NCBI RefSeq assembly: GCF_000026545.1
Contig: NC_011601.1
Strand: one strand, 5' to 3'
Length of the DNA: 64,000 bases
Source: Escherichia coli O127:H6 str. E2348/69
GTDB taxonomy: Bacteria; Pseudomonadota; Gammaproteobacteria; Enterobacterales; Enterobacteriaceae
This document shows positions 12,001 to 30,000 of this stretch, in pieces (the stretch's first letter is position 1; each line of letters opens with the position of its first letter). The position numbers are program-made.

Positions 12001-15000
12001 GCTTCGTGGTGCGTGCAGCACAGAATCGCCGGCTGGAAGAAGCACCCGGCAAGCTCTTCGAACTGCCGGAAGTCCTGGCAACCGCGGGAAGCCACACGCT
12101 GAATGTGATGCAAAAAGGCGGGCGGGCAGCCCGCCAGGCCCGGATGTTCATCAGTTACAGCGAAGTCAGCATAAAAAATCCCGACAACAGCGGCCAGGCG
12201 CTCCCGCTCACGTATGTCTGTTGCCGGGAGCAGGCAGAGGACGGCGCCTGCTGGCATCTGCTGACGTCAGAAAAAGTGGCGAGTGCCGCCGATGCGCGAC
12301 GTATCGTCAGCCATTACGAGCGACGCTGGCTGATAGAGGAATACCACAAGGCGTGGAAAAGTGGTGGTACATGTGTGGAATCGCTGCGAATGCAGACCCG
12401 GGATAACCTCGAGCGCATGGTGGTTATCAAGGCGTTTATCGCGGTGCGGGTGCTGGGCCTGCGGCAGGGCGGTATCAGTGAAGAAACACAAAATGACAGC
12501 TGTGAGAAAATACTGACGCCGACAGAGTGGAAACTGCTGTGGGTTAAGCTGGAAGGAAAACCGCTTCCGTCACAGATGCCGACACTGAAATGGGCCTGTC
12601 TGAAACTGGCGAAACTGGGGCGATGGCATGACAGCAAACGCACCGGTCGCCCCGGTTGGGTAGTCATGTGGGATGGCTGGTTCAGACTTCAGGATATGGT
12701 TGAGGGTTACCTGGTGATGAAGTCTCTTGATCAGGAGATCTGATCAAGAGACAGCTGTTCTGGCAGGGCTGCGAATTACAGGTCACTCTCGACGCGCAGC
12801 GTATTGCGATTCGAACTTCTGCGCCCGTTTCACTGCGCTTGAACGGTCAGCTTATTTACGTCGCTGAAGAATCTGTTTTCTGTTTGGGGGATTTTATTTT
12901 GCCCTTCAATGGGACCGCTACCACACATCAGGAGGGTGAATGAAACTGCAAGGGGTAATTTTCGATCTGGATGGTGTAATCACCGATACCGCGCATCTGC
13001 ATTTCAAGGCGTGGCAGCAGATTGCCGCTGAAATTGGCATCAGCATTGATGCGCAGTTTAACGAATCCCTAAAAGGGATCAGCCGCGATGAGTCTCTGCG
13101 GCGCATTCTGCAGCACGGGGGCAAAGAGGGCGACTTTAACCCGCAGGAGAGGGCGCAACTGGCGTATCGCAAAAATCTGCTTTACGTCCACTCACTGCGC
13201 GAACTGACGGTTAATGCTGTGCTGCCCGGCATTCGCAATTTGCTGGCTGATCTCCGTGCACAGCAGATCCCTGTAGGGCTGGCTTCTGTCTCCCTGAATG
13301 CGCCGACGATTTTAGCAGCGCTGGAGCTGCGCGAGTTTTTCACCTTCTGCGCGGACGCTTCCCAACTTAAAAACTCGAAACCGGACCCGGAAATCTTTCT
13401 CGCCGCCTGTGCCGGACTGGGCGTGCCGCCGCAGGCATGTATCGGCATTGAAGATGCGCAGGCGGGCATTGACGCCATTAACGCCAGCGGTATGCGCTCG
13501 GTGGGGATCGGCGCGGGCTTAACCGGGGCGCAATTACTGTTGCCCTCAACGGACTCCCTGACCTGGCCGCGGTTATCGGCCTTCTGGCAAAACGTATAGC
13601 AAAGGAATCAACATGGCTCAGCTTTCGTTACAACATATTCAAAAAATCTACGATAACCAGGTGCATGTGGTGAAGGACTTCAACCTGGAAATTGCCGATA
13701 AAGAGTTCATTGTCTTTGTCGGTCCGTCAGGCTGCGGTAAATCGACCACCCTGCGCATGATTGCCGGGCTTGAGGAGATCAGCGGCGGCGATCTGTTGAT
13801 CGACGGCAAACGAATGAATGACGTTCCAGCCAAAGCGCGCAATATTGCGATGGTGTTCCAGAACTACGCGCTGTATCCGCATATGACGGTCTACGACAAC
13901 ATGGCGTTTGGCCTGAAGATGCAAAAAATCGCCAAAGAGGTGATTGATGAGCGGGTGAACTGGGCGGCGCAAATTCTCGGCCTGCGAGAGTACCTGAAAC
14001 GCAAGCCGGGCGCGCTTTCTGGCGGGCAACGCCAGCGTGTGGCGCTCGGGCGGGCGATTGTGCGCGAAGCGGGCGTGTTTTTAATGGATGAACCGCTCTC
14101 TAACCTTGATGCCAAGCTGCGCGTGCAAATGCGCGCAGAGATCAGCAAGCTGCATCAGAAACTGAACACCACCATGATCTACGTGACCCACGATCAGACC
14201 GAAGCGATGACCATGGCGACGCGGATTGTGATTATGAAGGATGGGATTGTTCAGCAAGTAGGTGCGCCGAAAACGGTTTATAACCAACCTGCGAATATGT
14301 TTGTTGCCGGATTTATTGGATCGCCTGCGATGAATTTTATTCGCGGCACGATCGATGGCGATAAATTCGTTACGGAAACGCTTAAATTAACCATACCCGA
14401 AGAGAAATTAGCGATTCTGAAAATACAGGAAAGTTTGTATAAGCCCATCGTGATGGGAATACGCCCGGAAGATATTCATCCGGACGCGCAAGAAGAAAAT
14501 AACATTTCCGCCAAAATTAGCGTGGCAGAATTAACCGGTGCTGAATTTATGCTCTACACCACGGTTGGGGGGCACGAACTGGTGGTCCGTGCTGGTGCGT
14601 TAAATGATTATCATGCAGGAGAAAATATCACTATTCATTTTGATATGACTAAATGTCATTTCTTTGATGCAGAAACGGAAATAGCAATTCGCTAAATACA
14701 GGGGGAAGGCATTCCCCCAGGATAATACAAGGAACAATAATGAAAAATTTATTACCCTGTACCGCACTGGTGATGTGTGCGGGAATGGCCTGCGCACAGG
14801 CCGAGGAAAAGAACGACTGGCACTTTAATATCGGCGCGATGTACGAAATAGAAAACGTCGAGGGTTATGGCGAAGATATGGATGGGCTCGCGGAGCCTTC
14901 TGTCTATTTTAATGCCGCCAACGGGCCGTGGAGAATTTCTCTGGCCTATTATCAGGAAGGGCCGGTAGATTATAGCGCGGGTAAACGTGGAACGTGGTTT

Positions 15001-27000: not shown

Positions 27001-30000
27001 AAAACGCTATCGCCATTTGCATGGTTTGCCGCACTGGCGGGAATCAACAACGCACAGGCGATTATTGATGGTAAAGCCGCGCCTGACCAGCTTGGCGTCA
27101 CCGCAGTTGATGCCCATACTTTGAAAATCCAGCTTGATAAACCATTGCCGTGGTTTGTGAATTTAACCGCTAACTTTGCCTTCTTCCCGGTGCAAAAAGC
27201 CAACGTAGAAAGCAGTAAAGAGTGGACGAAACCCGGAAATCTGATCGGCAATGGCGCTTATGTTCTTAAAGAGCGCGTAGTCAATGAAAAACTGGTCGTA
27301 GTGCCGAATACCCATTATTGGGATAACGCCAAAACGGTACTGCAAAAAGTGACCTTCCTGCCAATTAATCAGGAATCCGCAGCCACTAAGCGTTATCTCG
27401 CGGGGGATATTGATATCACCGAATCCTTCCCGAAAAATATGTATCAGAAGTTGTTGAAGGATATTCCGGGGCAGGTTTATACGCCGCCGCAGCTCGGGAC
27501 CTATTATTATGCGTTTAACACGCAAAAAGGGCCGACGGCAGATCAGCGCGTTCGCCTGGCATTAAGTATGACGATAGATCGCCGCCTGATGACCGAAAAA
27601 GTGTTGGGGACGGGCGAAAAGCCAGCGTGGCATTTTACACCAGATGTTACCGCGGGATTTACGCCGGAACCTTCGCCGTTTGAACAGATGAGTCAGGAAG
27701 AACTGAATGCGCAGGCAAAAACTTTGTTGAGCGCAGCTGGTTATGGTTCGCAAAAACCGCTGAAGTTGACGCTTTTGTATAACACTTCAGAAAACCATCA
27801 AAAAATTGCGATTGCTGTAGCTTCGATGTGGAAAAAGAACCTGGGCGTAGATGTTAAATTGCAAAACCAGGAATGGAAAACCTATATCGATAGCCGTAAT
27901 ACCGGCAATTTTGATGTTATCCGCGCCTCGTGGGTAGGGGATTATAATGAACCCTCCACTTTCCTGACATTATTAACGTCAACGCATTCCGGGAATATTT
28001 CACGCTTTAACAATCCGGCATATGACAAAGTTCTGGCCCAGGCATCGACGGAAAATACCGTTAAAGCGCGTAATGCCGATTACAACGCGGCAGAAAAAAT
28101 CCTCATGGAGCAAGCACCGATTGCACCAATTTATCAATATACCAATGGACGATTAATCAAGCCGTGGCTGAAAGGTTATCCCATTAATAACCCTGAAGAT
28201 GTGGCGTACAGTCGGACTATGTATATTGTGAAGCATTAATGTGATGGGAACTGGCGTTACCCTTGTGGATAACGCCAGTGATGTCTGATTTAGCGACCCT
28301 GGTCCGGCGGTGTAATGTTATCCATATACAGCGTCTGGCTGGGGAAGGCAAAGTCCGCGCCGTGTGACTGTACAATATCGATAATCTTCAAATAAACGTC
28401 TTGCTGTGCGGCAAGCCACTCAGCCCATACCGTGGTTTTGGTAAAGCAATAAACCATAATATTTAATGACGAATCAGCAAACTGGTTGAAATAAACCAGT
28501 AAGGTTTGTCGCTGGTCGATGGCCGGGTGATTTTTCAGCATCTCACGTACGGCTTCGACAATAACGCCCACTTTTGCCGCATCCTCATAACGTAAACCAA
28601 TGGTCGTGGTAATGCGCCGGTTGGTCATTCGTCCAGGATTTTCTACGCTGATCGACGAAAACAGCGAGTTCGGTACGTACAATGGACGATTATCAAAGGT
28701 CTTAATTTTGGTAATTCGCCAGCCAATTTCCGCTACTGTACCTTCGATATTTCTGTCCGGTGAACGGATCCAGTCGCCAATACTGAAAGGACGGTCGAAA
28801 TAGAGCATAATCCCGGAAAAGAAGTTACTCAGAATATCTTTACCGGCCATACCGACAGCCAGACCACCAATACCACCAAAGGTCAACAAGCCAGAAAGGC
28901 TCATGCCGAAATGTTCGCCATAAAGCAGAACAAGCACCACAATAATGGTGATTTTGATAATGCGCGACATGATCCGCGCACTGGTGATATCGCGACCTTT
29001 TTTAATCTGCTGTTTTTCAAACTGATTAATCAGCAGAAATAGCTTAATCGTCAGAATAACCGCAATCAGGGACGTACAGATAAAATCGATAACGCCTGGG
29101 GTGATAAATTTGAGTTTATAGTTTTCTATAACATAGTTAATGATGCTACCAACAGCACTAATAATTATGGTGTAGATTAAAAATTGCACCGCATGGAATA
29201 AAAATCCTTTTCTTTTACGATCTCCACGGCGAAACCAAAAGCTCATCAGAATCAATGCTGCGCAGCTACCGAAAATAATGACCAGATTAAGCGCATTATT
29301 TGTAAACAGTTCAGCGATCATTGTTTTATCAGGCTCCTCCAGATAATTGTCGTCATGCCGGAAACCCCTGGCGGGACTATTTTACCGCGACAATTCATTC
29401 AGATCATCAATAGTCAGGGAAGGAAGTAGCAACATTAGCTAACTAATCAATGCGTTGATTGTAAATCCAGCTAAGAGGTGAGATTTTCAGAGCAGACAAC
29501 GGTGAAATGTCATGGTATTGTTACGTTTAGGTAACAAGAAATTTGTCTGCACAAGGATTACATCATGATTATGGCGAAACTGAAGTCAGCGAAAGGGAAG
29601 AAATTTCTCTTTGGTTTGTTGGCGGTTTTCATTATTGCGGCGTCGGTTGTGACTCGCGCGACCATCGGCGGCGTTATAGAACAGTACAATATTCCGCTGT
29701 CTGAGTGGACGACATCAATGTATGTGATTCAGTCATCGATGATTTTTGTTTATAGCCTGGTCTTTACAGTGTTGCTGGCAATCCCGTTGGGAATTTATTT
29801 CCTTGGCGGCGAAGAGCAGTAAGTAAAAAATAGGCCCGATAACTCGGGCCTTGTCAGTTATTGAAGAGTCGTTAATCGTCTTCTTCGTCATCCAGTTCAA
29901 CGGGTGTCTGATACTGGTCAGGTTTAATGACCAGCAGGTCGCAGCGAAGATGATCAATCACCTGTTCCGCCGTGTTGCCAAGGAATGCTGCTGAAATACC

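Follow-up and report, generated by a model that had tools for sequence, protein, structure and literature searches.

Three sites that are intact between positions 13613 and 29565 of the 64,000-bp stretch of DNA analysed here (the window), namely the transporter gene ycjV, a 212-amino-acid (aa) gene between ycjY and mpaA, and the ynaI-ynaJ spacer, raise the question of which strain background they identify and how much each of them says about it. The earlier note had read them, together with missing Rac, abg, paa and ydbA regions, as signs of a non-K-12 Escherichia coli or a close relative. The comparisons described below indicate that the window is almost certainly part of the chromosome of the enteropathogenic E. 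coli (EPEC) O127:H6 strain E2348/69, which belongs to phylogroup B2, and that the three markers represent unbroken ancestral states of sites that were damaged in K-12.

Strain identity of the window

The window, which spans pspA to hrpA, is identical to positions 1495214-1559213 of the E2348/69 chromosome NZ_LT827011.1 in 64,000 of 64,000 bases, with zero mismatches, and the 15,953-bp segment 13613-29565 within it shows 100% identity to EPEC E2348/69. Two further E2348/69 records, NZ_CP059840.2 and NZ_LT903847.1, also match the window. The best whole-window match is thus E2348/69 and not a K-12 derivative, so that the proposed non-K-12 background survives and the source can be placed within E. 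coli proper; a non-E. coli close relative is rejected by the same complete identity. The DNA therefore originates from an already sequenced and published strain, and the markers contain nothing new, while other findings from the window can be interpreted with the help of what is annotated and published for E2348/69. E2348/69 belongs to phylogroup B2 (PMC4464170). The assignment of the window to B2 is based on this publication and on strain identity, as the Clermont markers (chuA/yjaA/TspE4.C2) lie outside the 64-kb window, as do the LEE and the bfp plasmid.

An ISEc13 insertion splits ycjT upstream of ycjV

The annotation, a self-BLAST comparison and the element's ends define a 1,550-bp ISEc13 of the IS4 family at 11205..12754 (+) in ycjT, a gene that encodes kojibiose phosphorylase in K-12. 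The element cuts the gene into a 5' fragment (9117..11204, +), annotated as a pseudogene, and a 3' fragment (12755-12943), and is flanked by a 9-bp duplication, CTGTTCTGG, at 11196-11204 and 12755-12763. With ISEc13 and one of the two 9-bp copies taken out, ycjT again forms an open reading frame (ORF) of 755 codons; the event was a simple insertion that duplicated 9 bp. It lies 860 bp upstream of the region described in the earlier note, where it was not mentioned, and a second ISEc13 copy is also present in the window.

Population counts here and below refer to 5,426 complete genomes. When a match was defined by a query coverage of 80% or more, the ISEc13-ycjT junction was found only in the three E2348/69 assemblies; it is the sole strain-diagnostic feature nearby and the most specific marker. 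The same count bears on whether the source could be another B2 or EPEC1 strain, very near E2348/69 and not yet sequenced. Close relatives do exist, with other genomes reaching 99.2-99.5% identity over the 15,953-bp segment, but the second-best match is already about 0.5% different, zero differences were found in 64 kb, and the junction is confined to the three E2348/69 assemblies, making a neighbouring strain very improbable and E2348/69 itself the favoured source.

Since ISEc13 splits ycjT just upstream of ycjV, the intact ycjV resides in a broken operon. The ycj sugar-utilisation operon of E2348/69 is thus probably not fully functional, and the insertion may also exert a polar effect on the expression of ycjV.

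ycjV is intact and lacks the K-12 frameshift

The ORF at 13613..14695 (+) translates without interruption into the 360 residues described previously and encodes an ABC-transporter ATP-binding protein of the MalK/UgpC type (annotated WP_000057970.1). YcjV contains Walker A (residue 37), LSGGQ (135), Walker B (155) and H-loop (192) motifs, followed by C-terminal OB_MalK and TOBE_2 domains in addition to ABC_tran (PF00005, 110.5 bits). It passes the NCBIfam UgpC-subfamily model NF008653 with 483.8 bits (cut-off 432), and its cognate transporter is presumably YcjNOP. ATPase activity was reported to be retained by full-length E. coli YcjV (WP_000057985.1; PMC7658222).

The gene shares about 98% nucleotide identity with its MG1655 counterpart, and their pairwise alignment of 1,083 columns is broken by just one gap, 1 nt long and located in a run of G. 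This run is G6 in the window (14567..14572, +; gene nt 955-960) and G5 in K-12, where the resulting frameshift accounts for the two pseudogene pieces, ycjV and ymjB, annotated in NC_000913.3, in agreement with the earlier note, which gave ycjV as a pseudogene in MG1655. One G was dropped from the G6 run in K-12, most likely by replication slippage, splitting the gene into ycjV' and ymjB. The G5 frameshift is absent from the window. An exact 60-mer of the K-12 G5 allele occurs in 369 of the 5,426 genomes, a count that overlooks any G5 allele carrying a SNP close by and is blind to other inactivating mutations; most other genomes align with one extra base.

The ynaI-ynaJ spacer retains an empty IS5 target

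The intergenic spacer between the end of ynaI (29321) and the start of ynaJ (29565) measures 243 bp (29322..29564) and contains no insertion sequence, exactly as had been noted from the sequence. In MG1655 (NC_000913.3) the expected IS5 is indeed found between the two genes as the 1,195-bp IS5F, with CTAA duplicated on both sides. Alignment with the K-12 spacer places the insertion site at a single CTAA in the window (29439..29442, +), and the lengths agree, since the 1,442 bp of the K-12 spacer minus 1,195 and 4 give 243. IS5F at this CTAA is accordingly another feature of the K-12 lineage that the window lacks, and IS5 jumped into the spacer within that lineage. An uninterrupted spacer was found in 5,055 of the 5,426 genomes and the IS5F junction in 355, and among the matches listed for the latter 60 out of 60 were K-12 laboratory derivatives.

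The 212-aa gene and the origin of ymjC

The gene between ycjY and mpaA is an intact ORF of 212 codons at 23623..24261 (-), annotated as an 'SDR family oxidoreductase' (WP_000800174.1). The earlier description of an uninterrupted 212-aa gene thus holds, whereas its 'NmrA-like' label is loose: the match to NmrA (PF05368; 41.2 bits, cut-off 27) is restricted to the first third of the profile (positions 3-104 of 298), and the top-scoring Pfam family is PF13460 (NAD_binding_10), matched over the full length with 183 bits (5.8e-54). A more fitting name for the product is NAD(P)-binding atypical short-chain dehydrogenase/reductase (SDR). The earlier note gave ymjC, too, as a pseudogene in MG1655, but the current NC_000913.3 annotation lists ymjC (60 aa) and ymjD (21 aa) as coding sequences; even so, ymjC is what truncation has left of the 212-aa gene. 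The SDR gene is the full-length ancestor of K-12 ymjC. BLAST of the K-12 mpaA-ycjY interval against the window defined the edges of a 664-bp segment missing from K-12 (23459..24122), which comprises SDR codons 47 to stop and 164 bp downstream. In K-12 the initial 139 nt of the gene (46 native codons) are still in place at 97.7% identity, after which the alignment jumps by 664 bp at a junction with about 1 bp of homology.

Of the 5,426 genomes, 2,942 contain the segment and about 46% lack it, and the K-12-type deletion junction was found in 2,292 (about 42%), NCTC86 included. Absence from nearly half of the genomes fits, as a pattern alone, either a loss from K-12 or a gain in the E2348/69 lineage, for example by horizontal transfer, in which case the gene would mark an acquired island. 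A gain is, however, highly unlikely and was rejected: the beginning of the gene, from the start codon through codon 46, is still in position in K-12 up to a clean junction, all 2,292 deletion carriers share that junction, and no mobile-element ends or duplications were found in the flanks examined. Loss from K-12 is thus the preferred reading, and the common junction points to a single deletion event, which removed codons 47 to stop within the ycjY-...-mpaA operon, leaving ymjC, long before K-12 arose. Given 2,292 genomes with the deletion and 2,942 with the intact segment, presence of the SDR gene is a deep, old and roughly half-and-half polymorphism of E. coli.

The ycjY-...-mpaA operon, in which the full-length SDR gene lies, is controlled by PgrR and concerned with peptidoglycan recycling. 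A 30-nt near-repeat is common to the regions upstream of mpaA and mppA, and its mpaA-side copy stops exactly at the deletion edge; promoter and terminator scans around this near-repeat gave no explanation for it. A role of the SDR in murein-peptide or stress metabolism, with the deletion kept as a selectively maintained polymorphism rather than by neutral decay and the 30-nt repeat serving as a putative common regulatory site, is conceivable but unlikely. A pan-genome study associated ymjC with lactic-acid resistance, the scored allele not being stated (PMC9602453).

Regions missing relative to K-12

The reported absence of Rac, abg, paa and ydbA is confirmed by the annotation of the identical record, in which stubs mark the first three regions. 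The abg operon is reduced to stubs of abgT and abgR (32447..32794), just past which McaS is retained (32802-32897, -; Rfam, 112.8 bits). Of the 23-kb Rac prophage that K-12 has next to ttcA, only a 231-bp integrase stub (42546..42776, -) is present at that site. Loss of the tynA-paa region is marked at 56009..56368, where a helix-turn-helix stub occupying the place of feaR abuts a paaX stub; pdxI comes about 200 bp after paaY, and no ydbA is annotated. Compared with the MG1655 layout, the window thus has neither Rac at ttcA nor a complete abg operon.

These absences also bear on the idea that the window derives from K-12 with its three lesions repaired or engineered away. Such a derivative would explain the gene order common to the window and MG1655 and nothing further: Rac, abg and paa are absent, ycjV is about 2% diverged from MG1655, and no K-12 junction (ycjV G5, SDR deletion or IS5F) occurs in the window. 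With a probability that is vanishingly small, it is refuted by this SNP divergence and by the 100% match to E2348/69, which leaves the E2348/69 chromosome as the source. The three markers are not gains in E2348/69 but ancestral states, with the lesions on the K-12 side.

Value of the three markers

The population counts, taken separately for IS5F (355 genomes) and ycjV G5 (369 genomes), suggest that these two lesions are private to the K-12 lineage, so that the lack of both says only 'not K-12'. An uninterrupted spacer and an intact ycjV represent the species norm, and the SDR gene divides E. coli roughly in half; the three markers are thus unequal in value. Beyond bookkeeping and the calibration of markers, the finding has little import. 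One practical caveat applies to studies of the ycj sugar cluster, which is complete in neither reference strain: K-12 has no functional YcjV, and in E2348/69 YcjV is present but YcjT is broken.

Comparison with known systems

Between the E2348/69 chromosome and the window there are zero differences: the three markers, the two copies of ISEc13 and the deletions of abg, Rac and paa are common to both. In K-12 MG1655 (NC_000913.3, about 1.375-1.424 Mb) the genes between ycjQ and ttcA are arranged as in the window, but K-12 carries the G5 allele of ycjV, the 664-bp deletion that leaves ymjC and IS5F at the ynaI-ynaJ CTAA, together with an intact abg operon, the Rac prophage and an intact ycjT free of ISEc13. 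IS5 targets YTAR sites, and the spacer conforms to this pattern: K-12 has IS5 between CTAA copies, whereas the window has an empty CTAA and no IS5. Finally, YcjV resembles the MalK/UgpC-type nucleotide-binding subunits of carbohydrate ABC importers in its motifs and in its MalK OB/TOBE regulatory domain, but scores 431 bits against the MalK equivalog model, under the cut-off of 568.

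Identity of the window and its strain background

When positions 13613-29565 were searched by megablast in a set of 5,426 complete E. coli genomes, three assemblies of EPEC O127:H6 strain E2348/69 matched the whole query at 100% identity, while the genomes next in rank reached at most 99.5%. The non-K-12 E. coli background proposed in an earlier note on this DNA is thereby supported. Base-by-base comparison of window positions 1-44565 and 40787-64000 with NZ_LT827011.1, in which window position p corresponds to p + 1,495,213, revealed zero mismatches, and the annotation of the identical record places the genes from pspA to hrpA in the window, which belongs to a genome already known and published. 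The assignment of E2348/69 to phylogroup B2 rests on the literature (PMC4464170), as the phylogroup typing loci lie outside the window.

Origin of the three marker differences

The ycjV ORF (13613-14695, +; 360 aa) is uninterrupted and translates without internal stops. In K-12 MG1655 (NC_000913.3), ycjV and ymjB are annotated as neighbouring pseudogene pieces, in agreement with the earlier note. Their alignment contains a single gap across 1,083 columns, with GGGGGG at window 14567-14572 (gene nucleotides 955-960) versus GGGGG in K-12; slippage in this homopolymer has shifted the K-12 reading frame close to codon 319, within the C-terminal TOBE domain. The YcjV protein of the window matches the Pfam families ABC_tran, OB_MalK and TOBE_2, passes the NCBIfam UgpC-subfamily model (483.8 bits; cut-off 432) and has unbroken Walker A, LSGGQ, Walker B and H-loop motifs. 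Retention of ATPase activity has been reported for a full-length E. coli YcjV (PMC7658222). The exact K-12 allele, represented by a 60-mer, occurs in 369 of the 5,426 complete genomes, and the majority of the others carry one extra base relative to it, which is the G6 state.

The spacer between the end of ynaI (29321) and the start of ynaJ (29565) measures 243 bp, and MG1655 indeed carries an IS5 copy (IS5F, 1,195 bp) at this place. Alignment of the window (...ACATTAGCTAACTAATC...) with K-12 (...ACATTAGCTAA[IS5]CTAACTAATC...) therefore sets the insertion point at CTAA (window 29439-29442), with 4 bp duplicated, as is usual; the spacer lengths agree (1,442 - 1,195 - 4 = 243). An uninterrupted spacer is found in 5,055/5,426 complete genomes and the IS5F junction in 355/5,426; all 60 junction matches listed are K-12 laboratory derivatives (e.g., MG1655, C600, DH5alpha, DH1, J53 and NCM3722).

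The 212-aa ORF between ycjY and mpaA (23623-24261, -) likewise lacks internal stops. Its label "NmrA-like" is loose: the Pfam NmrA profile is matched, but over its first third only, whereas the full-length match is NAD_binding_10 (PF13460; 5.8e-54); RefSeq names the product "SDR family oxidoreductase". The SDR gene belongs to the stretch listed in K-12 work as the PgrR-regulated operon ycjY-ymjDC-mpaA (PMC5934670). K-12 matches window 23283-23458 and then 24123-24381, with 664 bp (23459-24122) missing and ~1 bp of sequence common to both sides of the junction. The earlier note is slightly off on the status of the K-12 remnant ymjC but right in substance. In RefSeq two tiny ORFs between mpaA and ycjY, ymjC (60 aa) and ymjD (21 aa), now figure as CDS rather than pseudogenes (NC_000913.3, 1390680-1390933). 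However, ymjC shares its ATG with the SDR gene (window 24261) and retains 46 of the native codons. It is thus a 46-codon stub of the SDR gene followed by 14 out-of-context codons, and the same remnant is labelled "NAD-dependent dehydratase" by PGAP in other genomes. The 664-bp segment is present in 2,942/5,426 complete genomes, including CFT073, ST131, O157:H7 and O55:H7, and the K-12 deletion junction in 2,292/5,426, including NCTC86 and many wild isolates.

These genome counts, together with the G6 state of most non-K-12 ycjV alleles, identify the IS5F insertion and the ycjV frameshift as K-12-private lesions, whose absence says only "not K-12". Presence or deletion of the SDR segment is an old polymorphism that divides the species roughly in half. 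At all three sites the window has the undamaged and K-12 the derived state; the markers are ordinary strain polymorphisms produced by textbook mechanisms, namely homopolymer slippage, illegitimate deletion and IS5 insertion.

A 30-nt near-repeat (TCACTTTTTTG[C/A][C/T]GGAAGTTGTTTG[T/C]ATTT) was observed at 23428-23457 and 26539-26568 (+; 28/30 identical, BLAST E-value 2.9e-7). The end of the copy upstream of mpaA coincides exactly with the left boundary of the 664-bp segment deleted in K-12, and the other copy lies ~60 nt upstream of mppA. Because mpaA and mppA both handle murein tripeptide, the near-repeat may be a regulatory site common to the two genes; promoter and terminator scans gave no explanation for it.

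Missing and additional regions

The identical record's annotation shows all the absences reported earlier: of abg, only stubs of abgT and abgR remain; Rac is represented by a 231-bp integrase stub at ttcA; a helix-turn-helix stub adjoins a paaX stub where the tynA-paa region is missing; and pdxI directly follows paaY, with ydbA missing. At the Rac attachment site (42546-44729), the integrase stub and a DUF1627 fragment precede ~1.2 kb of unannotated sequence, after which come a pseudogene annotated as "metal ABC transporter permease", with a frameshift, and then uspF. Rfam small RNAs occupy their expected positions: McaS (32802-32897, -), kept despite deletion of the adjoining abg operon, FnrS (39675-39792, +) and MicC (46751-46871, +). 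Beside the abg deletion, between mcaS and smrA (32968-36359), lies a cluster of three genes (an AraC-family regulator, an HlyD-family protein and a frameshifted DHA2 MFS efflux permease), which MG1655 lacks. The diguanylate cyclase gene dgcM (37197-38341, -) is annotated as frameshifted in E2348/69 and is intact in MG1655.

ISEc13 insertions

ISEc13 (1,550 bp; 11205-12754) divides ycjT into two pieces (9117-11204 and 12755-12943) a short distance upstream of pgmB and ycjV, the element lying ~860 bp upstream of the latter. The 9-bp duplication CTGTTCTGG stands on both sides, and removal of ISEc13 and one duplication copy restores ycjT to 755 codons. Of the features in this neighbourhood, the ISEc13-ycjT junction, absent from the earlier note, is alone in being truly diagnostic of the strain, since among the 5,426 genomes it is confined to the three E2348/69 assemblies. 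In these records the junction query matches 27-29 places, most of them presumably other copies of the IS end.

Between pdxI and azoR there is a second ISEc13 copy (58062-59611, -; 1 mismatch over 1,552 aligned bases), with a 9-10 bp direct repeat (CACTTTCGTG) at its borders. In K-12 this interval contains ydbD and ynbA-D, which are absent here; the intact duplication suggests that the element arrived after their loss.

Since the intact ycjV ORF lies downstream of a disrupted gene of the same cluster, the functioning of the ycj cluster in E2348/69 appears doubtful. The product of ycjT in K-12 is a kojibiose phosphorylase, whereas in E2348/69 the gene is split by ISEc13.
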